Assembly (NCBI GenBank): GCA_017942005.1
Contig: JAGAVJ010000039.1
Span: forward strand, 95,591-159,590
Source of the DNA: Clostridia bacterium
GTDB lineage: Bacteria; Bacillota; Clostridia; Oscillospirales; CAG-272
Direction of reading: 5' to 3'
Length of the DNA stretch: 64,000 bases
The notes beneath the pieces are model-generated. The model was not told the DNA's origin. It saw only the letters and a list, made by a program, of their open reading frames with translations, and did no database searches. Positions 24,196-58,341 of the stretch are shown piece after piece. How positions within the stretch are numbered: position 1 is the first letter of the stretch; the number at the start of each line of letters is the position of its first letter. Position numbers and translations under genes: made by a program.

Positions 24196-24209
24196 AATTA
24201 TGCGTACCA

Positions 24210-24242: not shown

Positions 24243-24434
24243 GTTTCACGGTCTCCCTCCAGCTTGATTGATTCAAATTATATCATACATCCTTGCCGCT
24301 GTCAAGCAATCTATGCAAAAAAACAAAAAACCACGCCATGTAAAAACAAATATATGCCATTGTAATTCACAGAAAAGTATGATATAATCTAAAATATATG
24401 AAACAACCATGGAATACGATAGAAAGGAATTCAA

Positions 24435-24532
24435 GTTTGAAAGATAAATCTTTCAAACCGTGTTTTGTGACTTACGTCACAATTCCACATTAGAAAGGAA
24501 AACTTCGCTTACGCGAAGTTATGGTGGTAAAG
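24435..24532 (+). repeat. Family B leader repeat, 3' part
   Basis: GTTTGAAAGATAAATCTTTCAAAC-CGTGTTTTGTGACTTACGTCACAATTCCACATTAGAAAGGAAA-ACTTCGCTTACGCGAAGT-TATGGTGGTAAAG. Nearly identical to the reverse complement of 7606-7683. Confidence 0.85.
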
Positions 24533-26002
24533 ATGAAACGTTTTTCCTGCATTTTACTGACAGTATTGCTGATGTGCGCTTCCTGCGGAGAAGCTGCAAA
24601 AAGCGATACAACGGACACCGCGCAAACCGGTACCAACACAGATACGGAGCCTGCCGCAACAGAAGCACCGATTCCGGATCATTTAGATGAATTGGGTGAA
24701 AAGGATTTTGAAGGCAGAGTGTTCACCATTCTTGATGCAAACGACCACCCCGATATGCATGTCAACATGCCGGGGACAGAAGAAAACGGCGACATCATCA
24801 ACGATGCGCTGTACCAGCGTGATGCTGCCATTGAAGAACGTTACAACATTGATCTGCAATATATCCAAATAGAAGGTGCAAGCACCGGTACAACCAAGCT
24901 GAAAAATGCAGCCCTGACCGATGACAGTACCTATTCCATCTGTATTTCCACTCTGCTTGGCGGAACGCTCGGCACCATTGCCCTGGAAGGCGTACTTGCC
25001 AATCTGCTTGAGGTACCGTACCTGTCACTTGATCAGAACTGGTGGAGCAGCCTGATGTATGAAAGCCTTCGCTTTGACAACAAAATGTATTACACCACAG
25101 GCGATATCTCTCCCACCATGTACCAGATGCCGTCTTGCCTTTACTTAAACAAATCCCTTGCAGAAAACTACGATATTCAGGCAGATTTCCCTCAGCTGGT
25201 GCGTGACGGAAAATGGACATGGGACGAAATGATTTCCGCCTGCAAAAATTTGACGGTCGATGTCAACGGAGACAACAAAATGGACACCTGGGACGACTTC
25301 TTCGGCTTTGTACACAACGAGATGAGCAGCCTTGTCACAAATGCATATGTTGTCAGCGCCGGAATTGATCTTTCCACCATTTCCGAGGACGGCAGTCAGA
25401 TCAAAGTTGATCTGCTCAACGAACACACAAGCAATGCCATTGATAAATTCAAGGAGCTGGTCACACCCAATATCAAAATTAGAGAATTCAATGATATCAT
25501 CACCAAAACCTTTGAAGAGGACCGCGCCCTGTTTTTGCACCACTATGTGGAAAGCGCTTCCAACTATCTGCGCGATATGAAGAGCGACTATCTGATTCTG
25601 CCGCTGCCAAAGTATGATGAAGCACAGGAAAGCTACCGTTCCTTCGCCAACGCATGGGCAGATGCATTTGTCGCAATTCCGATTACAAGCGATCCTGAAT
25701 TCACCGGGTTCATTACGGAAGCGCTCGGCTACTATTCCTATAAAAACGTCCGTCCGCAGACCTATGAAATCATGTATAAGCAGAAGACGACGCGCGATGA
25801 GGACAGTGCAGAAATGCTTGATGTCATCTTCAATACCGTGTATGTGGACTTCAACTGTATCTATGACTTTGGCGGAACCGCATCGGTGCTCTGCAACGTC
25901 ATCAACGGAAAAGGAGAGCTTGCATCGTCTCTCACCAAAATTGAATCGAAAATCGATACCGCTCTTGAAAAATTCATCACAGGCTGGAAGGCAGAAAAAT
26001 AA
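24521..26002 (+). CDS. LplA-like extracellular solute-binding lipoprotein (paralog 2 of 5)
   Basis: Lipobox in MKRFSCILLTVLLMCASC, reading from the ATG at 24533. Contains the motif LILPLPKYDEAQESY. ATGGTG at 24521 is in frame. Confidence 0.7.
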   Translation: MVVKMKRFSCILLTVLLMCASCGEAAKSDTTDTAQTGTNTDTEPAATEAPIPDHLDELGEKDFEGRVFTILDANDHPDMHVNMPGTEENGDIINDALYQRDAAIEERYNIDLQYIQIEGASTGTTKLKNAALTDDSTYSICISTLLGGTLGTIALEGVLANLLEVPYLSLDQNWWSSLMYESLRFDNKMYYTTGDISPTMYQMPSCLYLNKSLAENYDIQADFPQLVRDGKWTWDEMISACKNLTVDVNGDNKMDTWDDFFGFVHNEMSSLVTNAYVVSAGIDLSTISEDGSQIKVDLLNEHTSNAIDKFKELVTPNIKIREFNDIITKTFEEDRALFLHHYVESASNYLRDMKSDYLILPLPKYDEAQESYRSFANAWADAFVAIPITSDPEFTGFITEALGYYSYKNVRPQTYEIMYKQKTTRDEDSAEMLDVIFNTVYVDFNCIYDFGGTASVLCNVINGKGELASSLTKIESKIDTALEKFITGWKAEK

Positions 26003-26043: not shown

Positions 26044-26087
26044 GGGCTGCCGCAAGTTTTCAACTTGCAGCAGCCCCTCTTTTATTT
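26044..26087 (+). terminator. Family C palindrome / intrinsic terminator
   Basis: GGGCTGCCGCAAGTTTTCAACTTGCAGCAGCCCC followed by TCTTTTATTT. Confidence 0.75.
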
Positions 26088-27538: not shown

Positions 27539-28546
27539 CTACTGTCCCATTTCCCCTCGCAGAAATGCAAAAATTTTTTTCTCCGTCCGGGAAACCTTCA
27601 CCTGCGACAGCCCCAGCAGAGCCGCGGTCTGCTGCTGCGAAAGCTGTTTTTCATAACGCAGCCGCAAAATCATCTGCTCCAGCTGCGGCAGCTTTGCCAC
27701 CGCGTCATAGAGAGAAAGCCGTTCTGTCAGGCGATCAATGTCGTTTTCCTCTTCGCACAATACATGTTCCAGTGTAAAGACTTCATCCTCTCCCCCATCC
27801 CCGCCGGCCATCGGCTCGGACAGCGATGCAACCGGCGCTGCCGCATCCAGCAAAAAGACCAGAGATTCCGGCGTTTCTCCCGATATCTCGGAAAGCTCCG
27901 CCACCGTTGGTTCCCGCCCTTTTTCTCGCAGAAACTTTTCCTTTTCCTGCAAAACATGATATCCGCGCCGTTTTGTGTCTCTTGAAACCTTTACCATTCC
28001 GTCATCTCTAAGACAGCGGCGGATTTCACCGACAATCAGCGGAACCGCATACGTCGAAAACGTCGTTTCAAACGAAAAATCAAAGCTGCGCACCGCACGA
28101 ATCATGCCAATGGTTCCAATCTGCACAAGGTCCTCATATTCGATACCGGCATGAGACGCAAGCCTGTCCCGATACCGTGCTGCAATGGCATGGACAAGAC
28201 CCGCGTTTTGCTCTGTTAAAGCCGACAGTGCCGCCGCGCGCCCTGCTTCGTCCGCCGCATCGTGATATCTGTGCAAAAGGCGCAGATTTTCTTCATTTCT
28301 GTGCGTATTGTCCGTATTCTGACGGGTTTCGTTTCCGGGCGCCGTTTCCGCAGACGGTTGCGTATGCGAAACTTGTTTCGCGTGCGAAGCTTGATTCGCA
28401 TACGAAACTTGTTTCACGTGCGGAATTGCTGTTGACGTCACTGCCTTTGACACTGCGGTCTTTGACACTGTTGTCTTTGACACTGCTGCCCTCTCCGGTA
28501 CAGAAGAAGTGTGTGGGCGGCGGGAACGTACCCCGATTTCGCTCAC
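27539..28546 (-). CDS. sigF: Sporulation sigma factor SigF with ~85-aa repeat-containing N-terminal extension
   Basis: Sigma-70 regions 2-4 are present (LVHAIAARY, YEDLVQIGTIGMIRAVRSFD, LSQQQTAALLGLSQVKVSRTEKK). ATGA overlap with spoIIAB. Third gene of the spoIIA operon. Confidence 0.85.
   Translation of the reverse strand: MSEIGVRSRRPHTSSVPERAAVSKTTVSKTAVSKAVTSTAIPHVKQVSYANQASHAKQVSHTQPSAETAPGNETRQNTDNTHRNEENLRLLHRYHDAADEAGRAAALSALTEQNAGLVHAIAARYRDRLASHAGIEYEDLVQIGTIGMIRAVRSFDFSFETTFSTYAVPLIVGEIRRCLRDDGMVKVSRDTKRRGYHVLQEKEKFLREKGREPTVAELSEISGETPESLVFLLDAAAPVASLSEPMAGGDGGEDEVFTLEHVLCEEENDIDRLTERLSLYDAVAKLPQLEQMILRLRYEKQLSQQQTAALLGLSQVKVSRTEKKIFAFLRGEMGQ
28364..28489. repeat. In-frame tandem repeats inside the sigF N-terminal extension
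   Basis: 3 x 18 bp at 28364-28417 (ATGCGAAACTTGTTTCGC-like, each a small palindrome) and 3 x 15 bp at 28445-28489 (CTTTGACACTGNNGN). They encode HxKQVS and VSKTx repeats. Confidence 0.85.
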
Positions 28547-29142
28547 GCAATACCCTCCTGTCCATGACCGGAGGGGTCGTTTTGCACATTCTGCTGCGCC
28601 CCCGGTACTTCTATCGTTCCTTCGTCCTCCGTTTTCTCTTCCGCCAAAGGGTGTACGGGAGGTGCAAACTTCTTGCGCATCTCTACGGTTGTCCCGCGGC
28701 CGGGCGCACTTTTGACACGTACCGCATCCATGAAATTCTGCATGATAGCAAATCCCATACCGCTTCTTTCACCGCTCATATCTGTGGTATACAACGGCTC
28801 CATTGCCTGCGGAATATCACCGATGCCGCAGCCGCGATCACGGATGATAATTTTGATGCTTCTGTCATCGTACAGCGTCGTCAGTATGTAAACGGTGCGC
28901 TGCCTGTCATCTTTCGCCTGGGTATCGCCCTTGTAGGCATGCACGACAACATTTGTCACCGCTTCCGATACCGCACAGCGCACATCGGCAAGATCATCGA
29001 CCGTGATATCAAGCTGTGCTGCCATAGCGCAGATCATAGCGCGGGACAGACGTTCATTTTCTGACACCGCATAAAATTCTGTTTTCATCTGATTGAGGAT
29101 ATGCTTTTTTTTACGTTTGCTTCCATTTTCCTTGATCGCCAT
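28543..29142 (-). CDS. spoIIAB: Anti-sigma F factor SpoIIAB (serine kinase) with N- and C-terminal extensions
   Basis: HATPase_c motifs (EAVTNVVVHAY, IIIRDRGCGI, ERSGMGFAIM). 199 aa, against roughly 146 aa for canonical SpoIIAB as I recall. Confidence 0.85.
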   Translation of the reverse strand: MAIKENGSKRKKKHILNQMKTEFYAVSENERLSRAMICAMAAQLDITVDDLADVRCAVSEAVTNVVVHAYKGDTQAKDDRQRTVYILTTLYDDRSIKIIIRDRGCGIGDIPQAMEPLYTTDMSGERSGMGFAIMQNFMDAVRVKSAPGRGTTVEMRKKFAPPVHPLAEEKTEDEGTIEVPGAQQNVQNDPSGHGQEGIA

Positions 29143-29145
29143 CCC

Positions 29146-29523
29146 TCAATTCCCCTCCTTTTTCGGTGCATGGTAAATTTTTTCTATCGACAGCTTCTTA
29201 TCCATACCGGAAAGCTCTAAAATCCGCATCACACGTGCTGGTGGATCTACAAGACGAAATGCAGCCCCCAGCGTTCTGCACAGCTGATACCGTCCCATAA
29301 AAAAGCCAAGTCCCGCTGAATCCATAAATTCCACACCGCAAAGAACGATCCGCACGGTTTTCGGATGATAAAAATAAATTTCACGGTCGACGCTTTGTCT
29401 CAGCGCTGCCGCACAGTGATGATCGATGTCCCCTGTCAAAGACAGCGTCAGAACTCCCCCTTCATATTCCGACGCAACACCGGGGGAGCGCAGCGTATCG
29501 TCACAATTCTGTACCTTGGGCAT
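29146..29523 (-). CDS. spoIIAA: Anti-sigma F factor antagonist SpoIIAA (STAS)
   Basis: STAS domain with the phosphorylatable Ser context FMDSAGLG. First gene of the spoIIA operon. Confidence 0.85.
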   Translation of the reverse strand: MPKVQNCDDTLRSPGVASEYEGGVLTLSLTGDIDHHCAAALRQSVDREIYFYHPKTVRIVLCGVEFMDSAGLGFFMGRYQLCRTLGAAFRLVDPPARVMRILELSGMDKKLSIEKIYHAPKKEGN

Positions 29524-29633: not shown

Positions 29634-29840
29634 GGGCTGTCGCATTAACATGCTCCATCCTATAAAATTCGCCTTTTCGCTATGTATTTTTAACAAAATC
29701 CATAGCGAAAACGCCGAATTCGGATCACTTCGTGATCCCCGGGCTGTGATTTTGTGACTTTCGTTGCTTGAAAAGCAACGATGTCCGCCTGCGGTATAAC
29801 CGCGTGCGGGCGCGTCACAACTCCACAATGAGAGGAAATG
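29634..29840 (+). repeat. Hairpin-array leader repeat, long copy (family B)
   Basis: Aligns with the reverse complement of 7606-7837. The GTGAC..GTCAC hairpin (29754-29818) carries a 55-nt loop containing further hairpins. Ends in CCACAATGAGAGGAAATG. Confidence 0.85.
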
Positions 29841-37470: not shown

Positions 37471-37781
37471 TCATTCCTTTTATGTTGAAACCTTACTCCT
37501 GCCGCACCTTGAGTAGGCACAGAAGTCTGAGACAAAAATTTGAGAGGAATTCTCTTTCTGATAGGTGCTTGCGTCGTTTTACAAAATGAGAGGTATGGTC
37601 ATTTGACAATGTCGCCCTACATGTTTTTTTATTATAGCGGAAAAAGCGAAAATTGTCAATAGATTTAAAAATTTTCATACGATATCCGGGGAAACATATT
37701 GACTTTTTGTGTGATTTATGATATTATTTATTTTAATAAAACAGCAGAAATAGAAATTGAAAGAGAGATGATTTCGTTTAT

Positions 37782-39330: not shown

Positions 39331-39389
39331 TTGTGTAGCTCTCGCTACAATTTCACATAGAAAGGAAATCACTTTTACATTTTGTCAAT

Positions 39390-40901
39390 GTGATGATCAT
39401 GATTATGAAACATACACAAAAACAAGGAATTTTGGCGCTGCTTGCGCTGTTATGCGCCGCATCCGTATTCTCATCCTGCGGTTCCCCCTCCGATAAAAAG
39501 GACGATAAAACACCGAACACAGAAAATCATCCGGCCACAGACGCCACGACAGAAGCGCCTGCACCAGAACGTATCAAGGCAAACCTTCCGGACAAAGACT
39601 TCGGCGGAGAAACCTTCACCTTCTACGGCCGCATTTATGAGGGAGAATGGACCGCAAACGATATCTTTTCCCATACGGAAGACGGCGAGCTGATCAACGA
39701 TGCGCTGTATAACCGTACCACGTACATTGAAGAAACTTACAACGTCAAGCTTGACGCCATTGAAAGCGGTGAGGTCACCGTTACCTCTAAATTAAAAACA
39801 CTTCTTACTGCAGGCGACACCTCATTCCAGGCAATCTGCTGCGACGTATATGACGCAGGCGCACTCTCCGTTGAGGGTATGCTGCTTGATTTGAACCACG
39901 TAGAAAATCTTGATCTTTCTGCGGATTGGTGGGCACAGCAGACCAATGCATCCCTTTCCATTGCAAATAAGCAGTTTTACGTGACCGGTGATATCAGCAT
40001 CGTTGACAACCGCTCTACACGTGTCCTGTTCTTTAACAAGGATATCATCCGTTCTCTTGATCTTGAAAACCCCTATGATCTGGTCGACAACAATCAATGG
40101 ACCATCGAAAAATTTATCGAACTGTCTGAGGCTGCACTGTACGATGTAAACGGCGACGGCACCTATGACCGTCAGACGGATCAGTTTGGCGTTATGGCAC
40201 AGAAGCAGTTTGGCTCTGTTTTGTATTTCGCCTCCGGAAATCTTTTGACCGGAAAGGATCAAAACGACATTCCCTATGCGCTTTGCAGCACAGAAAAAGC
40301 AATCAGCGTTATGACCGGCATTTCCGATAAAATCTCCGGCTTGAAATCCATATCGCTCAGCGACGATAATACGTTTAAGAACGATTATCCTGACAATATT
40401 GTTTACTTTATGGACGGTCGCGCCCTGTTCGCACCGGAAGTTTTGACACATATTGCAACCATGCGCAACTGCACCGTCGACATCGGCATTCTCCCTCCGC
40501 CGAAATATGAGGCTTCACAGGATGCATACTATTGCTTTGCAGACGGTTGGTGCGTCAATGTATACTCCATTCCTTCCACCAATGTCAATTCCGCCGATGC
40601 CGGCTTTATTCTCGAAGCAATGGCAGCGGACTCTAAAAACAATCTGACGCCTGCCTATTTCAATGTGGTTCTGACCGATAAATATGCACGTGACGAACAG
40701 TCTGTCCGTATGCTGGACCTGATTTTGAATTCTCAGGTTATGGACAACGCAAATATTTTCTCATGGGCATCTATTGAGTCCACCGTTGCAAACGCCATTT
40801 ACAACGGCGGCGCAATCGCTTCTACGATTGAAAAGAAAGTATCTACGCTCGAAAAAATGATCGATAAGACCGTTTCCAAAATTGAAGCAGTGGAAAATTG
40901 A
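39390..40901 (+). CDS. LplA-like extracellular solute-binding lipoprotein (paralog 4 of 5)
   Basis: Lipobox ASVFSSC and motif GILPPPKYEASQDAY. Start is ambiguous (GTG 39390, ATG 39393, ATG 39405). Confidence 0.7.
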   Translation: MMIMIMKHTQKQGILALLALLCAASVFSSCGSPSDKKDDKTPNTENHPATDATTEAPAPERIKANLPDKDFGGETFTFYGRIYEGEWTANDIFSHTEDGELINDALYNRTTYIEETYNVKLDAIESGEVTVTSKLKTLLTAGDTSFQAICCDVYDAGALSVEGMLLDLNHVENLDLSADWWAQQTNASLSIANKQFYVTGDISIVDNRSTRVLFFNKDIIRSLDLENPYDLVDNNQWTIEKFIELSEAALYDVNGDGTYDRQTDQFGVMAQKQFGSVLYFASGNLLTGKDQNDIPYALCSTEKAISVMTGISDKISGLKSISLSDDNTFKNDYPDNIVYFMDGRALFAPEVLTHIATMRNCTVDIGILPPPKYEASQDAYYCFADGWCVNVYSIPSTNVNSADAGFILEAMAADSKNNLTPAYFNVVLTDKYARDEQSVRMLDLILNSQVMDNANIFSWASIESTVANAIYNGGAIASTIEKKVSTLEKMIDKTVSKIEAVEN

Positions 40902-40920
40902 TTCAAGATAGAATGAAACA

Positions 40921-40952
40921 GAAAGGAAGCTTTCGCATTTGCGAACGCTATG
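40921..40952 (+). promoter_or_regulatory. Split SD-hairpin-ATGGTC start module
   Basis: GAAAGGAA-GCTTTCGCATTTGCGAACGC-TATGGTC. Confidence 0.45.
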
Positions 40953-42422
40953 GTCGAATATATGAAGTGTAAATCTCTCCTCCCATTGGCATTGCTTCTT
41001 CTGAGCGCGTCTATCGTAACCGCGTGCAGTGATACAAAATCCGATGACACCAAAAAGGACGCTCCCGAAACAGTCAACTCTACAGAAACAGAAGCAGTCA
41101 CGGAAGCATATCAGGGTCCCATCCTGCCTGAGGCGAATTTCAACGGTGAAACCTTCTCGTTTTACAACAGCTGTATTTGTGACTGGATGGCAATCAACCG
41201 TGTTACCGCCGATGAGGAAACCGGCGACACCTTAAACGACGCAGTGTATCGGCGCAATTTAAAGGTCGCTGAACAATACAACGTCACGTTTTCAGAATAT
41301 CAGAACGGTGACAATATTTTAAAGACCGCCATTAACTTTATTTCCTCCGGTGATACGACACATTCCATCTATCTTTTGCGTGAGGATCCCGCTTTCAACA
41401 TTGTTTTGCAAAACGGCGCTGTCGATTTTGCCAATATTCCATATCTGAATCTCAATAGAGAATGGTGGCTGCAATCCACGCTTGAAAATCTGTCGTTTGA
41501 TCACCGCGTATTCTTCGGTACATCCACCTTTGATACCACCCACTATGACGGTACCTCCGCACTGTATTTCAATAAATCGCTGATTGATTCCTTTGATTTG
41601 GAAAACCCCTATGAGCTGGTCAAAAGCGGTAAATGGACCGTTGCCAAAATGGACGAAATGGCACGCACGGTTGCATCCGATATCAACGGTGATGGAAAAT
41701 GGGATGAAAACGATCGTTTCGGTATGACCTCCCATGAAATTCTCATCACACGGTTTTTAATGGCAGGTATGAACGCACCGCTGTCCCTCTCCAAGGATGA
41801 TAACGATTTGTTATATTTCGATATGCTATCCGACTACTACATCGACCGCATGACGCTTGCTGCCAATGTCATTTCCCAGAAGGACGGCTTCTACCATACC
41901 AAGGCAAATTCCGGCAACCACGGCGGTTATGAATACTTTTTAGCCGGCAATGTTTTATTCTACAATGAAACGCTGGGCAATGCGCAGAAGCTGCGTCAGA
42001 TGACGCTGGACTTTGGCATTCTGCCTGCGCCAAAGTATGATGAAAGCCAGGAAGGCTACCATAACGACGTCATCGAATCTTACTTCATGCTGGTTCCCTC
42101 AACCAATCCGGACCTTGAGCGCACCGGTATTTTAATGGAAGCGCTTGCATATGCATCTCTTGATACCGTTGTTCCCTCCGCGTATGACGGCATGCTGCAG
42201 GGTATCGTTTCCCGTGATACCGACTCAGAAGAAATGCTCGATATCATCTTTGATACACTGACCTTCTGTCATCCAGTCGCGCAGTCGTACACCTTAACAA
42301 ACCTCTACATGCGTATCTTTACAGGTAAGACGGATTTTGCTTCCTTCTTAACCAAATCTGAATCGAAGGTGGAAGCTGCCATCGAGGCTGCTATTACCGC
42401 ATACCGCGAAAACAACGATTGA
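40950..42422 (+). CDS. LplA-like extracellular solute-binding lipoprotein (paralog 5 of 5)
   Basis: Lipobox SASIVTAC and motif GILPAPKYDESQEGY. ATGGTC at 40950 is in frame with ATG at 40962. Confidence 0.7.
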   Translation: MVEYMKCKSLLPLALLLLSASIVTACSDTKSDDTKKDAPETVNSTETEAVTEAYQGPILPEANFNGETFSFYNSCICDWMAINRVTADEETGDTLNDAVYRRNLKVAEQYNVTFSEYQNGDNILKTAINFISSGDTTHSIYLLREDPAFNIVLQNGAVDFANIPYLNLNREWWLQSTLENLSFDHRVFFGTSTFDTTHYDGTSALYFNKSLIDSFDLENPYELVKSGKWTVAKMDEMARTVASDINGDGKWDENDRFGMTSHEILITRFLMAGMNAPLSLSKDDNDLLYFDMLSDYYIDRMTLAANVISQKDGFYHTKANSGNHGGYEYFLAGNVLFYNETLGNAQKLRQMTLDFGILPAPKYDESQEGYHNDVIESYFMLVPSTNPDLERTGILMEALAYASLDTVVPSAYDGMLQGIVSRDTDSEEMLDIIFDTLTFCHPVAQSYTLTNLYMRIFTGKTDFASFLTKSESKVEAAIEAAITAYRENND

Positions 42423-42590: not shown

Positions 42591-42720
42591 TTCTCAAAAA
42601 CGTTACATTTGCTTTGGTTTCTGTGCCTTGCATCCATGTGTGAAATATGATACAATAGGTATTGTGAGAGTTTCATCATTTTTGAAACGAGATTTTGCAG
42701 GAAATGCTGCAATTTTACAG

Positions 42721-42783
42721 GAAAGGAAGCGTTTCACAGGTATTTTGAACTATGTGTATATCAAAATATCGCGAAATGCCATG
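42721..42783 (+). promoter_or_regulatory. Split SD-nested hairpin-ATGGTT start module
   Basis: GAAAGGAA-GCGTTTC..[TATTTTGA(12 nt)TCAAAATA]..GCGAAATGC-CATGGTT. Both flanks are homologous to 40921-40952. Confidence 0.45.
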
Positions 42784-45700
42784 GTTTTACATATGCAAAT
42801 GAACATAAAACGGAAAAACGCCGTGCGATGGCACCGCATCACAGCGGCATGCCTTGCACTTATCACAACGATTCCGCTCTTTTCCGTCGGTATCTCTGCA
42901 TTTGCGATTGCAGATGAACATATTTCCTACCGCACAAAGGAAACGCTGACCGATGGGATGATTTTGGAGACGCTGCACGCAGAGAAAGACAATGCCGCCG
43001 AGGAAGGATATCTCTTTACCTTTACCCCCGGAAAAGCCGCTCTGCCCATTGTAACCGCAGGAAAGGGTGTCTGGGGACGCGAAACCGCAACAACCATGAC
43101 AAATGCACTGGTCAAGGACGGATACGCGGTTCTCGGCGGAGTCAATGCAGACTTCTTTTCGATGAAGACCGGGATTCCCATGGGCGTCATGATGATGGAC
43201 GGCGTCATCCTCTCCTCCGATGCCGGTGAAAATGCCATTGGTATGAAACAGGATGGCAGCATGATCATCGGCTGTCCCAAAATCAATATCACCCTGCACA
43301 AGACACAGAAAACCGATGATGCGGACAAGCCCCTATCCCCTGGCATCATAACAGGTGATCCCACCGAAAAAACGGTTGATATTCCAGTCAATCACATCAA
43401 TAAATATCCCTCCATATGGGGCGCATACCTCTGTACGCCAGACTTTGACAAAACCACCCATTCGACAGAAAAGGGAACGGAGATCGTATTCCGTCTGGAT
43501 GAGGGCAGTTTTGTCATTGACAAAAGCACACAGAATCCTGCTGCCAATGGCAATACAGGGTCATCGACCGGCTCCTCTGTATCCACGGAAACCAAACCGA
43601 TCAAGGCAACGGTAACAGAAATCCGGACCGATGCCATCAACGGCGCCATTCCGGACGACGGCTTTGTTATTGTGATACACAACAGCGCCGCCAATGCAAA
43701 CAAGTTCCGGGACTTCTCTGTCGGTGAAACGGTCACGTTCACCTGTACCGCTGCCAATGGATGGGAAGACGTTGTGTTTGCCGTCGGCGGCGGCGACATT
43801 CTGGTCGATAACGGCGCCGCAAAAACAGAGGGATTTTCAGCAGAGCACGCGGACAAGCGGCATCCGCGCACGGCCGTCGGCTATACCGCTGACGGAAACA
43901 TGCTGGTATTCGCTGTGGACGGGCGCACCGGTGCGTCTGAGGGAATGACGCTTGCAGAGCTTGCCCGGACCATGCGGGACTTTGGCTGTATCAGTGCATT
44001 AAATCTTGACGGCGGCGGCTCAACCACAGTGCTGGTACGGGAACGCGACGGCGCGTTCCTTGTCGCCAACAATCCGACCGACGGGTACGAACGCACCATC
44101 TCCAATGCACTGCTTTTTGTAAATACCGCAGAACCGGATGGAGTTCCATGCTTTGCAGAAATCACACCCGATGCACCGATTGTCTATCGGGATACTGCAA
44201 TTCCGCTTTCTATCGCGTTTTATGACAAAAGCTATGCACAGGTTTCCTGTCCGGAGGCAAACGTCACATGGGTCTCTGACGGCGGCATCATCAAAGACGG
44301 CGTATTGACCCCGTCTTCTCCGAATCCGGGTGTCATTACAGTTTCTGCGCAGGTACATATTCCAATGACTGAACAAAAAAACAATACCGCACCAAATGAA
44401 GCGGTAACTGAAAAAATCGTGACGGTTTCCACAAAGGTTTATCAGGTTGACAAGCTTGACAGCATCCAGACCGCAGTTTCTGCACTGGAGGTTCCCTTTG
44501 GCGGCATCTCCGATCCCATTTCGGTCACAGGCGTATGGAAGGGACGGAAGGAGAAGGTACATATTCATCCTTCCTATCTCACCGTCGCCTTTGCACCGGA
44601 TGACAGCACACAAAACAAGGCGGACTTGCATACCTGCGCATATGGCAGCATCGACAGCACACTTTCGGTTCACAATACTGCAAGCGCCGCAGACCCTGCC
44701 ATCAACACGCTTCTTGCAAAATCCGGTTTCCCGCAGTCAACGCTGACCTTCTCTCTCACAGATTCCAGTACAACGCATACCACATCGATCCCTGTGACCT
44801 TCGGCGCTGCGCCGCAGATTGTCATGGATATGGAGGAAAAGGACGTGCAGAACCGCTTCTCCGTGCCATCAGCCACGGATACTGTGTCACGGCTGGCGGT
44901 CGGCGGAAGGGGTGACTCGGCAGCGGTCGCCGTTGCGGCGCCGTCCGTTTCACTGACCAAAACACCCCCGTCACAAACCCCCGTGAAGCGTATGGATCTG
45001 TACGTCAAGGGGACCCTTCCAAACGTTCTGCAGGCAGTCATTTCCTACCATGGCACCGCCTATACACTGCCATGGACCGTCACAGACGACTTTACACGGC
45101 TGGACGGCTGGAAACGGATTTCCCTTGACCTTACCGCGATTGCTCCAAACGGCATCCGTGATTTTACAATCAATACCCTGTTGACCACACAGGCAGCAGA
45201 CTCCACATCCACGATCGAACCGGAAAAATTCTCGCTGACCATTGACAATCTGGTCTACGATTTCGGCGATGCGCTTCCTGTTTTCTGTGACATTGCAGAC
45301 TCCTGGGCAAAGGACAGCATCCTTTCTGTCGCACGGATGCAGGTGGTCGGCGGCATTCCCATGGCAGACGGTACCTATGCCTTCCGTCCCACAGGTCTTC
45401 TGACACGTGCGGAATTTGCCAAGATGATCTGTGTCTTTGCAGGATTGACCGTTCCCGAAGCGCCGACAGAAGAAGAACTGTTCCCGCCGACCGCTCCTGC
45501 TTCTCAAACACCTCCCGATCCAACTGCATCTGCAGCTGCAGATGCACGGGCAAATACGGATGCAGCAGACACCGCAGACACACAAAATACACAAGCGTCT
45601 GACACTGCTGGAACACAGGACGGAAAACCTGCTGTAACTGACCCTGGCAGTGTAACTTCTGACGGTAATACGGATTCTGAAAAAACGCCTGATACTGCTG

Positions 45701-46283: not shown

Positions 46284-47030
46284 TTATAAAAGGTGCGACT
46301 GTAACCGCCGTCCGAGGGGATTGTGTTCCTGATACGGTTCGTCCGATACATGCAGTGTATAAGAAACAGGAAGCACTTCGTCAAACAAAGCACTGTCACT
46401 TTGACCGATATACCCGCACAGACGCAGGATTCGCTCTCCACTGTCTTTTTCCAATTCAGAACAGATTTCCCTGAAATTCGGTGCCGCACGGTACAAGGTC
46501 TTTGCATCCTTAGGGGCACGGACGGAAATCACCGGTATTTCTCCGGACAGGGCAAACAACTTTTCATAAAGTGAATCATCGGCACCGATCACACATACGC
46601 CGCGCGCGATCTTTGCAATGTATGCGAGTGTTTCGTCCTCATCTGCGCCGCGTTCTTCCCCTGTCGGAATACAAAACAGCAAAATATGCACGTCCCGATA
46701 CTCCGTACTCGACCAAATGGCATGTTTTGCACCGAGATAACATGCGGACACCAGCTGAAAATCCACATCCTCGCAAAGCAGTGCAACTGCTGCCGGAAGC
46801 ATGTCCCGCGGGTTCTGTGCCGGTACCGGAGCAGCTGATGCAGCCGTACCGCCGCCGCGCCGTCTGACAAGCATCCGCGCCGATTCATCCGGAACGTAGT
46901 TCAGCGTCCGGATCGCGTTTTCAATTTTCTCTTTTGACGCCGGGCTCACGCCCTTGACACCGTTTAAATAGCGGGAGACCAGTGTCGTAGATACGCCTGC
47001 ATGACGAGCGACGTCGCCGATGGTTGCCAT
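46284..47030 (-). CDS. LacI-type HTH protein with short, atypical effector domain
   Basis: MATIGDVARHAGVSTTLVSRYLNG..VSPASKEKIENAIRTLNYVPDESAR is a LacI/PurR HTH. The rest (~190 aa) is shorter than a full periplasmic-binding-fold domain. Confidence 0.6.
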   Translation of the reverse strand: MATIGDVARHAGVSTTLVSRYLNGVKGVSPASKEKIENAIRTLNYVPDESARMLVRRRGGGTAASAAPVPAQNPRDMLPAAVALLCEDVDFQLVSACYLGAKHAIWSSTEYRDVHILLFCIPTGEERGADEDETLAYIAKIARGVCVIGADDSLYEKLFALSGEIPVISVRAPKDAKTLYRAAPNFREICSELEKDSGERILRLCGYIGQSDSALFDEVLPVSYTLHVSDEPYQEHNPLGRRLQSHLL

Positions 47031-47073
47031 TCCGTTGACCCAAACTCTCAAAACAATTGAGAGCTTCCTTTCC
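47031..47073 (-). promoter_or_regulatory. SD-hairpin module upstream of the LacI-type gene
   Basis: Minus strand reads GGAAAGGAAG-CTCTCAATTGTTTTGAGAG-TTTGGGTCAACGGA-ATGGCA. Confidence 0.3.
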
Positions 47074-49526: not shown

Positions 49527-49574
49527 GGTCCGCAAAAGCTTGCCCCAAAAGGAACGTTTGCGTTTCTAATAAAA

Positions 49575-49654
49575 AAAGGAAATAACCTTTTATCAGTTCA
49601 GCAAATGCTGTACATTTCATCATTCGCTGAACGCGAAAAAGTTATAGTCATAAT
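49575..49654 (+). promoter_or_regulatory. SD-hairpin leader module interrupted by the MITE
   Basis: AAAGGAAATAACC.., GTTCAGC(25 nt)GCTGAAC, then GCGAAAAAGTTATAGTCATAAT. The last 11 nt are the left copy of the duplication. Confidence 0.4.
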
Positions 49655-49858
49655 CTAGGCAATTGTAAAACTCCGTTTTACAATTGGTTTCATCGGACTG
49701 ACGCAGTCCGATGGCTCCCTTTGGTCGCTTTGGAGGTGTCTTTTTTGGCGGGAATACCCGCACGACATAAGACGTTGAACGTCTTATGTCATAACGACGC
49801 ATTTATCGATATATTGCCTTGCAGGCAATATATAATGACGACTTTTACAATTGCCTAG
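49655..49858. mobile_element. 204-bp MITE-like element (family 2)
   Basis: Perfect 16-bp TIRs CTAGGCAATTGTAAAA (49655-49670) and TTTTACAATTGCCTAG (49843-49858). Flanking 11-bp direct repeats ATAGTCATAAT (49644-49654) and ATGGTCATAAT (49859-49869). No ORF; the interior is three perfect hairpins. Confidence 0.8.
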
Positions 49859-49891
49859 ATGGTCATAATCATGAAGGAGGAACACGGTTTT

Positions 49892-51835: not shown

Positions 51836-52203
51836 GATACACCTCCAGTTTTGTTTTTATCAGTATTTTCCCATGCCTTCCAAATCTCGGGCTGGTAACC
51901 AACCGTCGCATTCCTGCCGTTTCTGACCACAGGCGTCTTGATATAGGAAGGGTCTTCTAAAATTTTTTCCACAACCGCGTCAGGCAGCAGATATTTAACG
52001 TCGCAGTACCGCTTGTTATCCTGGTCAAGCAAGCCTTCCAGTCCACCGACTGCCGCCAGCACCGCGCGAAGCTCTCCTGCGGAGAATCCTTTTTCCTTCA
52101 AATCGATCATCTGAAAGCGGATACCGCGCTCCTTAAAGTAACGCTGTGCCTTTTTGGTATCAAAGCACTTATTCGTTCCGAAAATCTGAATGTTCATTGC
52201 CAT
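51832..52203 (-). CDS. ArsC/Spx/YffB family protein
   Basis: IQIFGTNKCFDTKKAQRYFKERGIRFQMIDL, plus the thioredoxin-like length. Confidence 0.7.
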   Translation of the reverse strand: MAMNIQIFGTNKCFDTKKAQRYFKERGIRFQMIDLKEKGFSAGELRAVLAAVGGLEGLLDQDNKRYCDVKYLLPDAVVEKILEDPSYIKTPVVRNGRNATVGYQPEIWKAWENTDKNKTGGVS

Positions 52204-52324
52204 TTTGGTATGATAACGGTTTGCGCGTTCTCAAAATTCAGTACGCGCAAACCGATTTTTCCTTTCTTTGCTGCAAATCACGATACCGGGATATCCTCTG
52301 TTAACAACAGCGAATATCCGCATC

Positions 52325-53252: not shown

Positions 53253-55127
53253 TTATTGAATCAGCGGCATTGCTGTCATGCGCAGATCGGTGCATCCATA
53301 CGGAATCATCTCGATCAGCGTTTCTTCCCCCTTAGGTGTACGGTCCTTGGGCATACTTGCTGCTGCAAATGCAAAGCCGGGTTCTGTTCCCCATGGAATC
53401 GGTACAAAGGCTGCCTGAATCGCAACAGGCGGCTGCACTTCGTTGAATACGGAGCCGATGGCGGGCAGCGGGCCCAGTTCACGATAGGTAAATGCGGTAT
53501 CGGAAAATGCGTATTCCCACTCCGCATCCGGGAACAGCATCCAATCACAGTATGGCTCACACCGCTCGACGCCATCGCGGATATATTCTTTTTTCTGCCG
53601 TTTTGCTTTGATCGGAATGGAATAGAGCAGCGCGCCGCGATTGACGCAGCGCAGGTCTTCATAGCCAGCACCGTCCAGCTTGATGTCAAACGCAAACGAT
53701 ACGCGGATGACCGTTTCCCCTTCCCATACGCGGCGAATGGAAACCACCTTCCCCGGTTTTACCTCTTCCCCATTGACACAGGCGGATTTTGCAAATCCCG
53801 GAATGCGGATATCCAGTGCGAATTCGACCGGTTTTTCCACGGTGACACGGTACTGCACCGCATCACGGAACGGATAACCGCTCTCGCATGCCACTCTGAC
53901 GTTTATGCCGTGTAGAACCAGCAACGCAGTCGCCGGAACAGGAGATGCCGAGAAAACGGCGTCGTCGTTTTTCATAAATGCGGCAAGAGCAAATTTGGGC
54001 CAGCCCTGCGGCATATTGGCAGTACAGCAGCCATAGTTCGGTTCCAGACCAAAGAGATTGGCTTCCGGACCGTTTGTGCCAAAGATTGTTGCACCGTTGC
54101 CCTCCGGCGCACAGGCAATCTGGTTGATCTGCTGGTCATACTGGTGTGTCCACATGTCGGAGGAGGTTGTTGCCGGAAGCGCATTGAAGGTCAGCCGCTC
54201 CAACAAATCTCCAAAATAAACGTCCCCCGTCATGGCAAGCAGCCATTCATCAGAATACATGGCTTCCACCACACCGCACAGCTCTGTGCCTTGAATCGGA
54301 CTCCTGCCGGACAAGCATTCATCACCGGTAAAGTGTCCGGTCGCCATACCGTGATACTGCATCAGCGTTTCATACATCCTGCGTGATGCATCGGCTTTCA
54401 CAGTTCCCCCAGAGCGCTTCTGCCACAGGGTGTCGGATTTCAATGCCATTGCAAGATTGACGACATGGGTGTCCCACTGCCATTTGCGTTCCGGTATCTT
54501 GTAAGCATCAAATTCCTCATCAATCAGCTTGGTGTAGTCTTTGCCCTGTACATGCAAAAGATCACAGTATGCAAGAATCCAGTCTTCTCCGGTACGCTCA
54601 TACAGCCAATATGCCGCAATCAGCCCCTCAAACCAACGGTACTGTCCCCACCCGAACAGCGGATGTGCCGCAAGGTGTTCTGTTGCCTGCTTCATTGCCC
54701 TGGAGAGCGCGTTTTCCACAAGCGGTGCATCCTCCGGACAGCAGTCCGCATAGACACACAGCACTTTGGAAATCAGCAGAAGCGCCCACATGTCGTAGCC
54801 TGCCCGCTCATCCTCACTGCATGGGCAAATCCAACCGTCCGCGCACTGTCCTGCAAGAATCGCATGGATATACTTCTTTGCGCGTGCAATCATATCCTCG
54901 TCCCGGAGCAGATAGGCAAGCGGCACAAAGCCGTCCAGCCAGTACGGTACACGCTCCCAGCCTTCACAGCTGCCGCCGATCCAGCGGCTGTCCCGGACGT
55001 CAGGCCATATTTTATCCAGGTTTCCCGCAAGACCGTCCGCTTCTGTCTTCAGCTGATTGTACAGCCAGCCCGAAGGAAGTACCTGTGCAGGCGTTAAAAA
55101 TTCGTATTTGTTTTTCGTGATGCTCAT
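53253..55127 (-). CDS. GH127/DUF1680-like beta-L-arabinofuranosidase family protein
   Basis: WERVPYWLDG, DGWICP and a six-hairpin-like N-terminal half with a beta-sandwich C-terminus. The family call is from recognition only. Confidence 0.5.
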   Translation of the reverse strand: MSITKNKYEFLTPAQVLPSGWLYNQLKTEADGLAGNLDKIWPDVRDSRWIGGSCEGWERVPYWLDGFVPLAYLLRDEDMIARAKKYIHAILAGQCADGWICPCSEDERAGYDMWALLLISKVLCVYADCCPEDAPLVENALSRAMKQATEHLAAHPLFGWGQYRWFEGLIAAYWLYERTGEDWILAYCDLLHVQGKDYTKLIDEEFDAYKIPERKWQWDTHVVNLAMALKSDTLWQKRSGGTVKADASRRMYETLMQYHGMATGHFTGDECLSGRSPIQGTELCGVVEAMYSDEWLLAMTGDVYFGDLLERLTFNALPATTSSDMWTHQYDQQINQIACAPEGNGATIFGTNGPEANLFGLEPNYGCCTANMPQGWPKFALAAFMKNDDAVFSASPVPATALLVLHGINVRVACESGYPFRDAVQYRVTVEKPVEFALDIRIPGFAKSACVNGEEVKPGKVVSIRRVWEGETVIRVSFAFDIKLDGAGYEDLRCVNRGALLYSIPIKAKRQKKEYIRDGVERCEPYCDWMLFPDAEWEYAFSDTAFTYRELGPLPAIGSVFNEVQPPVAIQAAFVPIPWGTEPGFAFAAASMPKDRTPKGEETLIEMIPYGCTDLRMTAMPLIQ

Positions 55128-55214
55128 GTAAATTACCAAAACTTCTGTATAAGAAACCGTCAAATGAAAGACCGTTCCGTTTGCAAAAGCGATTTCCTTT
55201 CTGAAATTTTCAAA

Positions 55215-56450
55215 TTAAATATCAAACAGAATTCGGAGTGCATGCAGATAATACAGCATACAGGAGGAATACCACTGCGAGCATTCCGACGGAACACCGG
55301 TAATGGGGTGCAGCTCCTGTCCGAACTGGGTGGTGGTACTTTGCGACCATGCCGATACCCAACGGCGCATCATCTCTTGCATTTGATCGGTATAGCCGTA
55401 CCGGGGCATCCAGTGCATGGAACGCAGTCCGGTCAGCCCCTGGGAATAAAAGCCCCATGAGTTGCCCGGCAGATTTTGTACCCATTTCGGATCCGATGAG
55501 GATACAGCAGGCATAGGATACGGCGTCCAGAATTCATTTTCATTGAACAGATACCGCTTTGCCGTCTCCTCGACAAGTGCCGGCTCCATAACGCCTTCTG
55601 AGATGACATTGGTAAGGAAAATCGACCGAATCTTCCGTTTTTCGCCGTGTTTGTCGACGTCATAGAAGTATTGGTCTTCCGCATCCCAAAGGTATTCAAA
55701 CATCTTTTTCCGCACATCCAGAGCGCGGTCTTTCCATTCAGCGGCTTCCTCTGGTTTTCCAAGCAACTCTGCCATTTTGGAAAGTGACATCAGGTTGCCG
55801 AAAAAGCAGGCGTTCATATCAGGCGCCAGCATCGGCAGAACGTCACAGTCGTCCGGTGCAATTCCACCCGGCACACGTTTTCCGTTCTTTTGATTTTCCC
55901 CTTTATACTTTAGACCGTCCAAACGGGCGCTGTTGTCGTGACCGGTATCAAAACCGCAGAACATCTCAATCAGTCCTGTTCCGCGTGTCATATGCGTCTT
56001 GGAAAGCCAATTGACCCAGGCGGACACAGAGCGATAGCACTTTGGCAGAAATGCTTCATCCTCCGGATTTTGTTGGATCGCTTCCAGGCATACGCTGCCG
56101 ACCGATACGCATTCCTGCGTCCATCCATAACCGGTTTCGTTTTCCCAGATATAGCAAGGCAATTGACCTTCCTCGGTCTGCCGATCAAGGAAAATTTCGA
56201 TATGATTCTTGGAAACGACATGTTCCGTCGGCATATAATCCGCCCATGAAACACCGTCGTAAAGATGCTCCAACCAGACGCCCGGATAGGCATCGGAAAT
56301 AAAAAACACATTACCTGCCGAGCCTGCCCATTTTCGCAGGTGATGATCATAAATCCGTGCAAGAATGCGTTCCTTCTGTTCTTTTAATACTGCACGGGGA
56401 GGAATCGGATATTCCGTATTCATTGCACTGTCACCGCAGCTTTTGTTCAT
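55215..56450 (-). CDS. (alpha/alpha)6-barrel glycoside hydrolase-like protein (GH63/MGH1-like)
   Basis: 411 aa with Trp-rich six-hairpin-type segments (FDTGHDNS, WGFYSQG). GGAAGGGAG lies 8 nt upstream of the ATG. Confidence 0.45.
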   Translation of the reverse strand: MNKSCGDSAMNTEYPIPPRAVLKEQKERILARIYDHHLRKWAGSAGNVFFISDAYPGVWLEHLYDGVSWADYMPTEHVVSKNHIEIFLDRQTEEGQLPCYIWENETGYGWTQECVSVGSVCLEAIQQNPEDEAFLPKCYRSVSAWVNWLSKTHMTRGTGLIEMFCGFDTGHDNSARLDGLKYKGENQKNGKRVPGGIAPDDCDVLPMLAPDMNACFFGNLMSLSKMAELLGKPEEAAEWKDRALDVRKKMFEYLWDAEDQYFYDVDKHGEKRKIRSIFLTNVISEGVMEPALVEETAKRYLFNENEFWTPYPMPAVSSSDPKWVQNLPGNSWGFYSQGLTGLRSMHWMPRYGYTDQMQEMMRRWVSAWSQSTTTQFGQELHPITGVPSECSQWYSSCMLYYLHALRILFDI

Positions 56451-56594
56451 GCAAAAGCTCCCTTCCGAATATCATAGATTTTGTGATGCTGTTTTTCCAT
56501 GTACATCATAACACAGATTCTGGGAAATAGCAAGAGAAATTTAAAATTTTCCAAAAAAAATTCAGAAAAAAACGGTGTTTTCGCCGTTTGCTAC

Positions 56595-56699: not shown

Positions 56700-56900
56700 A
56701 ATGAACATCAGGGGTGCTAAAACAGGCTGAGACGGCAAAAAAGGAAACGAAATCACGTTTTATATATGTGATCATCATGACCATGCCGAACCCTTTACCT
56801 GATTCGGATAATGCCGACGGAGGGAGTATTTTCAAGCGTTCTATGCCAAAAGAGCAGAGGACCTCATTTCCGCACGGTTTCATAGGTGCGGAATTTTTAC
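56700..56900 (+). promoter_or_regulatory. TPP (THI-box) riboswitch with terminator expression platform
   Basis: GGGGTGC..CTGAGA..(long P3 insert)..AACCCTTTACCTGATTCGGATAATGCCGACGGAGGGA, then TTCCGCAC(10 nt)GTGCGGAA-TTTTTACTTTTT. Confidence 0.85.
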
Positions 56901-56919: not shown

Positions 56920-57492
56920 ATGGCAAACCAAAAATCAAACAAACTGTACATCCTCATTGAGTGTGCACTGATGGTGGCGCTCGCCACAGTGCTGAGCTTT
57001 GTCCGGGTCTACAAGCTGCCGCTTGGCGGATCAGTGACACTGCTTTCCATGCTGCCTATCTGCATGCTGTCCATTCGCCACGGACTGAAATGGGGGCTTG
57101 CAGGCGGATTCGTCTATGCATTTCTCCAGCTGATGCTTGACATCGGTGAGGTTGTCTCATGGGGTCTGACGCCGCTGGCGCTGATTGGATGTATTCTTTT
57201 TGATTACCTGATTGCATTCACCGTCATCGGTCTTGCAGGTATCTTTCGCAAAAAAGGCCGCAGCGGCATGATTGTCGGCATTGCGCTTGCACTGTTTCTG
57301 CGTTTCTGTTCTCATATGGTATCCGGAACGCTGATTTTTGACATCTGGATGCCGGAAGGCTGGAGCAATCCGTTTGTATACTCGCTTGCCTACAACGGTT
57401 CTTATATGCTGCCGGAGCTGATTTTCACGGTGATCGCCGCGGTTCTTCTGACAAAAACGCCGGCGTTCAAACAGCTGCTTGGTCAAAAATAA
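56920..57492 (+). CDS. thiT: ECF-type thiamine transporter S component ThiT
   Basis: Six-TM protein behind a TPP riboswitch. The N-terminus MANQKSNKLYILIECALMVALATVLSF is typical of ThiT. Confidence 0.8.
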   Translation: MANQKSNKLYILIECALMVALATVLSFVRVYKLPLGGSVTLLSMLPICMLSIRHGLKWGLAGGFVYAFLQLMLDIGEVVSWGLTPLALIGCILFDYLIAFTVIGLAGIFRKKGRSGMIVGIALALFLRFCSHMVSGTLIFDIWMPEGWSNPFVYSLAYNGSYMLPELIFTVIAAVLLTKTPAFKQLLGQK

Positions 57493-57517
57493 TCATCTTA
57501 AATTGAAATGACAGGCA

Positions 57518-57559
57518 GGCTGTTGCAAGTGTTCAACTTGCAACAGCCCCTTTCTTTTG
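57518..57559 (+). terminator. Family C palindrome / intrinsic terminator
   Basis: GGCTGTTGCAAGTGTTCAACTTGCAACAGCC followed by CCTTTCTTTTG. Confidence 0.75.
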
Positions 57560-58289: not shown

Positions 58290-58341
58290 ATTTATCCTCT
58301 CATTATGGAATTGTGATGAAGTCACAAAATCACGGTACAAT

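Follow-up and report, generated by a model that had tools for sequence, protein, structure and literature searches.

We analyzed a 64,000-nt stretch (contig JAGAVJ010000039.1 of assembly GCA_017942005.1; hereafter the window) of the ordinary chromosome of an uncultured, spore-forming gut Clostridia bacterium, whose nearest protein relatives are metagenome-assembled genomes (MAGs) of Oscillospiraceae/Ruminococcaceae. The results showed that about three in ten genes of this bacterium, the essential gene mraY included, carry a hairpin derived from an interspersed repeat between the Shine–Dalgarno (SD) sequence and the start codon. We suggest, with a probability of about 0.5, that this arrangement is a structure-bridged (split) ribosome-binding site (RBS) of the type found in gene 25 of phage T4, borne by lineage-specific mosaic palindromic repeats. 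Each cassette would consist of a normal SD sequence (GAAAGGA), a stable hairpin beginning 0–1 nt after it, an unstructured tail of 10–14 nt (Y-ATGGTC-ATAAYN), and the ATG of the gene. The hairpin would fold in the mRNA and be looped out, so that approximately 11–15 unpaired nt, and no longer 30–75 nt, would part the SD sequence from the downstream ATG, and it would possibly stack coaxially on the helix formed by the SD and anti-SD sequences. The 30S subunit would then bind the SD sequence and initiate at the downstream ATG. The ATGGTY sequence would be a conserved piece of the repeat tail, whose usual 6-nt continuation creates an in-frame ATG four codons upstream of the start.

The cassette is illustrated by a gene for a lipoprotein resembling substrate-binding proteins (SBPs) (locus E; 40962–42422, + strand). 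The SD box AGAAAGGA (40920–40927, +), which matches the box that canonical genes have 6–13 nt ahead of their ATG, is separated by a single A from the hairpin GCtTTCGC-ATTT-GCGAAcGC (40929–40948, +), and the 13-nt tail T-ATGGTC-GAATAT (40949–40961, +), with its in-frame ATGGTC, leads to the probable true start at ATG 40962 (MKCKSLLPLALLLLSASIVTAC). The codons ATG AAG TGT AAA at this position open a typical lipoprotein signal peptide. The preceding co-directional gene ends 48 nt before the locus, and there was no transposase, tRNA, or known RNA family in the window at the motif. The same layout of GAAAGGA box, 0–1 nt, hairpin of 18–64 nt, tail of 10–14 nt, and ATG recurs at 12 other loci in the window, and the tail often reads YATGGTY-N6. 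All ten loci listed in the original prediction, which was made from the letters of the window, were found in the sequence. Its description of an SD box held apart by a stable hairpin from a start codon that has no SD beside it was borne out, as was the likeness that it saw to the split RBS of T4, the unpaired spacing at most loci being similar to that of gene 25.

Spacing, hairpin structure, and frequency of the cassette

The canonical genes of this genome use the same GAAAGGA box 6–13 nt before the start, counted from the end of GGA, and GAAAGGA is thus the normal SD sequence of the genome. It fits the conserved Firmicute 16S tail (...CCUCCUUUCU-3'), which we take from general knowledge and not from the 16S rRNA of the organism itself. 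The distance between SD and start in relatives was 5–12 nt, with a mode of 8. Across the 19 cassette loci, the linear distance between SD and ATG was 30–75 nt (median 46), that is, more than 15 nt in every case. The gap between GGA(R) and the hairpin was 0–1 nt in 14 of the 19 loci, the hairpin measured 18–64 nt, and the tail between hairpin and ATG was 10–14 nt in 17, so that the number of unpaired nucleotides (gap plus tail) was 11–15 in 14 loci, with a median of 13. Since the tail stays constant while hairpin length varies 3.5-fold, the single-stranded spacing appears to be the constrained quantity and not the total distance. We found no second SD beside the start codon, as tails such as TATGGTCGAATAT and TACGGTCAAATTT have neither GGA nor GGAG; the exception is the gene at locus O, where AAGGAGG precedes the ATG at 49892. 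The downstream ATG is the only start candidate, with no other SD, in mraY, lacI, rlmL, sodC, the gene of a 193-aa membrane protein, and a dapA-like gene of a relative. Promoter-like sites lie approximately 100 nt upstream of the cassettes of an SBP_bac_1 lipoprotein gene (locus B) and lacI (locus J), which would place these two cassettes inside 5' untranslated regions (UTRs).

The minimum free energy (MFE) of the hairpins ranged from −7 to −24 kcal/mol, with fold z-scores of −2 to −7 in 8 of 16. Cassette arms and tails are homologous between loci: the arms ATMACTTTYAC/GTRAAAGTKAT, GCTTTCG/CGAAAGC, and AACTTCGC/GCGAAGTT are shared across unrelated genes, and the covariance model R1 matches 15+ loci in the species. 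In an alignment of nine loci, 89.7% of the cells were paired and 6 of the 11 pairs were altered on both sides, i.e. in a compensatory manner. None of 500 shuffles reached the observed pairing, and slid controls gave 38–45%. The hairpins had been described as perfect, which does not hold at locus E, where 5+2 bp with one mismatch give an MFE of −9.8 kcal/mol and a z-score of −1.06 against shuffles; this hairpin is homologous with the hairpins of the 193-aa protein gene (contig L158, 14088) and of L161, one of two SBP paralogs from other samples (L034 and L161) at which the cassette was also found.

The sequence elements were more frequent than expected in the window: GAAAGGA occurs 32 times (9.2 expected), GAAAGGA-N12-40-ATGGT three times (0.18 expected), and ATGGT-N7-ATGMA four times (0.56 expected). 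The 10-mer ATGGTCATAA is present in exactly four copies in the window and six in ~80 kb of the species, and it was not found in ~74 kb of relatives. A census of the arrangement SD, hairpin, tail, and ATG gave 19 of 66 genes in ~88 kb of the species, which agrees with the earlier view of a module reused across unrelated genes, versus 1 of 50 genes in ~74 kb of related genera (Fisher p = 1e-4). The related sequences came from four MAGs with 64–74% protein identity to the species of the window. Four of the window loci (39359, +; 55202, −; 52267, −; and the AraC-type regulator at 24260, −) were added by reading every gene start. Six cassettes come from same-species contigs that extend the window, upstream of genes for a DLH hydrolase, rlmL, a Cu/Zn superoxide dismutase (sodC), moxR, the 193-aa membrane protein, and mraY. 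At orthologous sites, presence and absence differ: the five orthologs of the locus E gene, moxR, the 193-aa protein gene, mraY, and rlmL have in relatives a plain SD followed by 6–13 nt (15 nt in rlmL) and ATG. The comparison showed that the whole RBS had been replaced and that the cassette was not simply inserted into an RBS. The sole cassette among the 50 genes of relatives, found by the covariance model, belongs to a dapA-like gene of contig L165.

We infer that the upstream SD is still used and that folding of the hairpin keeps it usable, and ribosomes probably start across the looped-out hairpin. Several observations weigh against this interpretation. Five loci (K, a GH127-like gene; L, an ArsC/Spx-like gene; C, cls; rlmL; and mraY) have 17–21 unpaired nt, and even 11–15 nt, once the helix end with its width is added, is a spacing at or past the upper normal limit. 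The hairpins of locus E, of L034, and of two further lipoprotein genes (loci G and H) were no more stable than shuffles. There are orphan copies in either orientation. Moreover, the genes that carry cassettes are mostly accessory or of low expression, which would also fit tolerated selfish insertions. In cls and the barstar gene there is no ATG at +12, and ATGGTC is in frame, with 7 and 21 open codons, respectively. Furthermore, the same-species contigs were 99.96–100% identical where compared and thus provide no population variation.

A wider claim, which we make only tentatively and hold to be rather doubtful, is that SD, hairpin, spacer, and start form a portable RBS module that spread genome-wide and took the place of the native RBS in hundreds of genes, including essential ones, with ribosomes routinely initiating across a looped-out helix of 18–64 nt stacked on the duplex of SD and anti-SD. 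More speculatively, GGU of the tail could pair with the next bases of 16S rRNA (ACC), making a bipartite SD broken by the hairpin. Cofolding with 16S (GGTCAT against AUCACC) gave bipartite pairing in some loci; the consensus C was mismatched and only GGU (3 bp) was conserved.

A mosaic repeat family and its neighbours

Some copies lack a gene, others an SD or a hairpin, which indicates that the cassettes are a mosaic repeat family that displaced ancestral RBSs. The orphan copy A (7602–7644, −) reads AGATAGGA-AA-(ACTTCGC ttgc GCGAAGT)-CATGGTCATAAAAGG and no gene follows it; yceD, which lies downstream, has its own promoter and SD. The original prediction had listed this site (7650) among its ten loci; its SD reads GATAGGA and only a 41-codon open reading frame follows. 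A hairpin-less orphan without a gene, GAGAGG-T-ATGGTCATTTGACA-ATG, lies at 37588–37611 (+), and a hairpin-less copy, GAAAGGA-ATGGTCCTC-ATG (L158 9564, −), precedes a real, flippase-like gene.

A block of ~160 nt with six consecutive hairpins is present in three copies of ~93% identity (7679–7836, −; 29640–29745, +; L158 16290–16480), in either orientation to the neighbouring genes; the copies designated P and Q are antisense to theirs. Copy Q runs straight into CATGGTCATAATC ATG, while in copy A a 62-nt piece, composed of element X, SD, and hairpin, stands between the hairpin block and CATGGTCATAA. Element X, CCGTG(A)TTTTGTGAC-loop-GTCACAAYTCCACAWTRGARAGGA, ends in the SD and was observed at 7637–7678 (−), 24458–24499 (+), 21315–21369 (+), 58295–58335 (−), and 29743–29836 (+). 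In the gene for a HAD hydrolase (58288, −), no hairpin comes after element X, which leads through an ordinary 5-nt spacer to the ATG. Its palindrome TTGTGAC-N4-GTCACAA resembles Rex/CRP-type operators, and its loop carries insertions of 4 to ~60 nt. Both a riboswitch or leader function of element X and a transcription-factor operator function of the palindrome were ruled out, because the downstream genes are unrelated and the loop insertions span 4–60 nt.

A MITE (miniature inverted-repeat transposable element) of 203 nt (49656–49858), with 16-nt terminal inverted repeats (TIRs; TAGGCAATTGTAAAAC), four internal perfect hairpins, and a 9-nt flanking direct repeat (GTCATAATC), sits in the tail of cassette O and parts this cassette from its gene. 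Relatives of the MITE occur in the same species at L166 13400–13810, in the spacer between ftsQ and murG. For the cassette itself, we saw no TIRs and found no target-site duplication (TSD) at its borders; copies A and Q differ by the 62-nt insert without duplication. No cognate transposase of the RAYT or IS200-IS605 type turned up among the ~60 proteins, encoded in 88 kb, for which there were Pfam data.

Long perfect palindromes form two families, GGGCTGCTGCAAGTTTTCAACTTGCAGCAGCCC and GGGGAAAACTTTTTTGAAAAAAAGTTTTCCCC, with five copies each, mostly at gene ends (20031–20063, 7682–7706, 24210–24247, 26044–26081, and 57517–57554 for one; 19911–19944 and four more for the other), and they are probably shared bidirectional terminators. 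No cassette matched an Rfam covariance model at the gathering threshold or at E<=1. Scanning a collection of genome contigs that does not include this species for TTTTGTGAC-N3-20-TCACAAYTCCA gave 29 matches, all due to chance. A scan of metagenome contigs for GARAGGARATMACTTTYAC returned 120 rows, likewise all due to chance, and the 3' arm was matched in none of them.

The alternative that best survives these observations, although we consider it unlikely, is that the cassettes are selfish or neutral palindromic repeats of the repetitive extragenic palindromic (REP) or MITE kind. Nothing would then be bridged and the old SD would effectively be lost; a weak or SD-less start at the downstream ATG, by way of the open, A/U-rich tail and perhaps the 3-bp GGU contact, would be tolerated in low-demand genes. 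The homologous arms and tails, the orphans in both orientations, the mosaic modules, and the richness of the genome in other palindromic repeats and MITEs agree with this explanation. It also agrees with the under-representation of cassettes on highly expressed genes, since ftsZ, der, ackA, and rpmF have a canonical RBS, and we found neither TSD nor transposase (at the cassette borders and among the ~60 annotated proteins, respectively). Random insertion does not explain, however, why the exact SD consensus stands 0–1 nt before nearly every hairpin, nor why the cassettes of 19 genes are in sense orientation and have a tail of fixed length. A tail that stays constant despite the 3.5-fold variation in hairpin length and a cassette on the essential mraY also speak against it, and SD-independent initiation is generally poor in Firmicutes.

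Start codon and remaining alternatives

The original prediction had taken ATGGTY itself as the start codon in use, with the hairpin bringing the SD within a few nucleotides of it in the manner of T4 gene 38 and the proteins beginning with MV(I/V/E/L) prefixes. We find this improbable as a general rule. ATGGTY is in frame in 10 of the 11 loci that have it, including cls (+21) and barstar (+63), in both of which the frame is open; gene callers picked it for locus E, barstar, L155 1991, and moxR. The in-frame upstream codon noted earlier in six cases was correct, with offsets of 21, 12, 12, 12, 33 (also 12), and 24 nt. The tail consensus ATGGTC-ATAAYN-ATG is itself repeated, however, and is found also in orphans (copy Q, consisting of the D2 palindrome and CATGGTCATAATCATG, and L155 5585, consisting of a hairpin and GGTCGTAACGATG), which accounts for the frequent 12-nt in-frame relation. 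It had been stated beforehand that the prediction would fall if the motif merely marked the end of a repeat family: ATGGTCATAA(YN ATG) does end a repeat, as in copy Q, and at the same time it stands at a fixed 6-nt distance from real starts.

The position of ATGGTY relative to the SD also argues against its use. The stem is 0–1 nt away, and in the cassettes of cls, barstar, and locus O the AT of ATGGTY takes part in the pairing, so that only 1–2 unpaired nt separate this ATG from the SD, which is below the 6–13 nt range of the genome. In hairpin-less copies, ATGGTC cannot be the start, as it directly abuts the SD, while the second ATG is normally spaced.

Protein N-termini pointed in the same direction. 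At L158 14088, ATGGTT is located 13 nt upstream of the ATG, out of frame and closed after 13 codons, and the 193-aa protein is conserved from Met1 (M1, L4, P5, and R7 do not vary among 12 homologs). The mraY gene has ACGGTC-AAATTT-ATG in place of ATGGTY, and its N-terminus MSSMQ..CF is like MLSSIQ..CF of the relative. In lacI, the tail reads TTGGGTC-AACGGA-ATG and the LacI helix-turn-helix domain begins two residues after that ATG. ATGGTY is also absent from the dapA-like gene of the relative (ACG). The hairpin foot carries no ATGGTY in loci G, H, L, and N, sodC, and rlmL, yet ATG follows 10–18 nt past the hairpin. None of the 24 orthologs of the locus E protein (62–74% identity; N-termini MK, MS, or MR) has an MVxx prefix. 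Comparison of Cls N-termini was uninformative on the start, and with nine loci there was no power to see whether the two codons that follow ATGGTY are depleted of stops.

Thus, since copies exist in which ATGGTY is out of frame, missing, or abutting the SD, it is not supported as a general start. Judged from the sequence, translation most likely begins at the ordinary downstream ATG at most loci, and ATGGTY may be used in genes that have no ATG at +12, namely cls and barstar. Gene callers are inconsistent here and choose ATGGTY, a TTG within the hairpin, or the true ATG. Some individual assignments had to be corrected as well: the site at 49575–49654, placed on the minus strand, is on the plus strand, reads ATAGTC, and is followed by the 203-nt MITE before the gene; TTGGTA of the locus at 10355, presented as a codon after the hairpin, lies within the hairpin; and the site at 47073, presented as an ATGGTY locus, reads TTGGGTC, in a different frame from the true start of lacI at 47030.

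Another explanation, which we regard as very unlikely, is that the hairpins are regulatory, either as operators for an RNA-binding protein or helicase or as a structural switch (e.g. a temperature sensor), and set the translation of the whole set of genes. The structure is kept by covariation, its position is ideal for translational control, and the set includes many transporters and regulators. Against this, the loops and stems are diverse (at least four hairpin types, including nested forms) with no common protein-binding motif apparent, the genes are functionally unrelated, and stems of −10 to −24 kcal/mol would stay folded at physiological temperature.

It is hardly credible that the tail is a promoter, with YATGGT as a −10 element of the TANNNT type 7 nt before ATG, leaderless mRNAs, and an untranscribed SD-like box and hairpin: the A and final T of YATGGT are the best conserved positions and the 7-nt distance fits leaderless genes of other phyla, but there is no −35 or TG extension, hairpin length is variable, loci J and K have no A, good promoter-like sites lie ~100 nt upstream, locus E follows a co-directional gene closely, and the box matches the SD consensus exactly instead of being a generic A-tract. 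The companion idea that the hairpin and TTCCTTTCT form a terminator of the opposite strand, suggested by a scan that flagged the hairpins as terminator-like on that strand, was ruled out because UUCCUUUCU is a poor U-tract. Promoters of alternative sigma factors (sigma-H, extracytoplasmic function, and sporulation sigmas) were also ruled out, as the spacings do not fit.

Individual loci and relation to known systems

The remaining loci of the window follow the scheme of locus E with different stems, loops, and tails. Locus B (24492–24535, +), AGAAAGGA-A-(AACTTCGC ttac GCGAAGTT)-ATGGTGGTAAAG-ATG, belongs to the SBP_bac_1 lipoprotein gene and has a hairpin z-score of −2.8. Since a second similar unit, AGAAAGGAATTCAA-(GTTTGAAAGA taaa TCTTTCAAAC)-CGTG, lies upstream in the same 5' UTR (24421–24462, +), the layout of SD and hairpin is in tandem there. 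The cardiolipin synthase gene cls (locus C; 21362–21418, +; z −5.3) has TGAAAGGA-G-(ATAACTTTCAC tttc GTGAAAGTTAT)-GGTCATAACTATAAAAAAT-ATG, with a 19-nt tail and ATGGTC at 21395. Locus D (42720–42795, +), preceding a gene for an NAGPA/SLH protein, reads GGAAAGGA-A, a 51-nt nested hairpin, and CATGGTTTTACAT-ATG. The lacI locus J (47028–47073, −; z −2.4), GGAAAGGA-(AGCTCTCAA ttgtt TTGAGAGTT)-TGGGTCAACGGA-ATG GCA ACC, has no ATG at the hairpin foot. The GH127-like gene (locus K; 55125–55202, −) is preceded by AGAAAGGA-AATCG, a 48-nt hairpin, and TTTTGGTAATTTAC-ATG, and the ArsC/Spx-like gene (locus L; 52201–52267, −; z −4.7) by AGAAAGGA-AAAATC, a 36-nt hairpin, and GTTATCATACCAAA-ATG.

Two lipoprotein genes have degenerate hairpins: locus G (39359–39407, +; SBP), AGAAAGGA-A-(ATCACTTTTAC..GTCAATGTGAT)-GATCATGATT-ATG, which scored 60.6 bits with the covariance model, and locus H (10309–10356, −; SBP-like), AGAGAGGA-G-(ATCACTTTTAC tttg GTAATCGTGAT)-ATTTATTATT-ATG. 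In the gene of a zinc-ribbon protein (locus N; 11777–11855, +), AGAAAGGA-A and a 57-nt hairpin are followed by TCAGAATCCT-ATGGTA, and here ATGGTA itself is the start, 10 nt past the hairpin. The start of the barstar gene (locus I; 2133–2231, −; z −7.1), AGAAAGAA-A-(ATCACTTTTAC gaga GTAGAAGTGAT)-GGTC..., is ambiguous, as the Pfam domain begins at the ATG 63 nt downstream. Cassette O is split by the MITE into a 5' half (49573–49655, +; AAAAAGGA-A, a 64-nt hairpin, and AGTCATAATC), severed from its gene, and a 3' half (49859–49873, +; ATGGTCATAATC-ATG) at the gene of an AlgX/DHHW protein, which now has the conventional SD mentioned above. The gene of the AraC-type regulator (24193–24260, −) shows a looser variant, GGAGGGAG-ACCGTGAAAC, a 33-nt repeat palindrome, and TGGTACGCATAATT-ATG. 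The dapA-like gene of L165 (3781–3900, −) reads CAGAAAGGAA-(GACTTTGC ccg GCAAAGTC)-ACGGTC-AAAAAA-ATG, and its public gene call starts at a TTG within the hairpin.

Some other features of the window were also observed. The RBS of a trehalase-like gene (56438–56466, −) consists of the SD GGAAGGGA and a hairpin, AGCTTTTG-cATGaa-CAAAAGCT, with the start codon in its loop. An element resembling the thiamine pyrophosphate (TPP) riboswitch (56700–56843, +; 50.9 bits against an Rfam gathering threshold of 54.3, E 5e-7) is located upstream of a Thia_YuaJ thiamine transporter gene (56920–57492). An operon of the spoIIAA/spoIIAB/sigF type (27539–29523, −) has three tandem 18-nt repeats (28361–28422) in the 5' part of the sigma-factor gene.

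The split RBSs of T4 genes 38 and 25 were reportedly described by Nivinskas in 1999 and by Malys and Nivinskas in 2009. In these genes, a hairpin cuts the spacing from 22 to 5 nt (gene 38) and from 27 to 11 nt (gene 25), as shown experimentally (PMC3014915). The present cassettes resemble them in having a distant SD (30–75 nt as against 22 and 27 nt), a hairpin that would restore a workable spacing (median 13 as against 5 and 11), and no other SD. They differ in that the T4 examples are single, phage-specific cases, whereas here one homologous cassette occurs on ~30% of chromosomal genes, with a hairpin 0–1 nt after the SD that comes from an interspersed repeat family, and in that the effective spacing is at the long end and is known from sequence alone.

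As short, multi-copy, hairpin-forming mosaic modules between genes, with compensatory pairing changes, lineage-specific copy number, and orphans in both orientations, the cassettes are like REP elements and bacterial interspersed mosaic elements, the BOX and RUP elements of pneumococci, and the Correia elements of Neisseria. Those elements, unlike the cassettes, are mostly found after genes or between genes of an operon, acting on transcription or mRNA stability, and we know of none described between SD and start codon. A review of MITEs does not mention ribosome-binding sites, and the cassette departs from REP and MITE families in that no TIR, TSD, or cognate transposase was seen for it. The mycobacterial interspersed repetitive units (MIRUs) keep flanking cistrons coupled. 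Rickettsia palindromic elements insert in frame into open reading frames (PMC10969869). The cassettes share with both the compatibility of repeat insertion with translation; here, in contrast, the repeat is in the untranslated spacer between SD and start and need not be translated. A resemblance also exists to the STAB-SD of Bacillus thuringiensis cry3A, where the 5' UTR of a Firmicute gene has an SD-like box of the GAAAGGAGG type a long way upstream of the start. STAB-SD acts by stabilising the mRNA, and cry3A has a separate SD at its start codon, whereas there is no second SD here.

The cassettes would thus combine a known mechanism, the split RBS, with a known type of DNA, interspersed palindromic repeats; we did not find the combination, or its frequency, described in the literature searched. 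Structure-bridged RBSs have so far been a couple of phage genes, regarded as curiosities. If ~30% of genes use a bridged RBS, the ribosome tolerates large structured inserts between SD and start more readily than assumed, interspersed repeats can capture translation signals in addition to transcription signals, and gene callers set starts wrongly in such genomes. For relating spacer structure to initiation, the genome offers ~20 natural versions of a single design that differ in stem, loop, and tail. If the tentative notion of a portable module were true, the translation of a genome-wide class of mRNAs would hang on a single feature of their structure and could be adjusted jointly.

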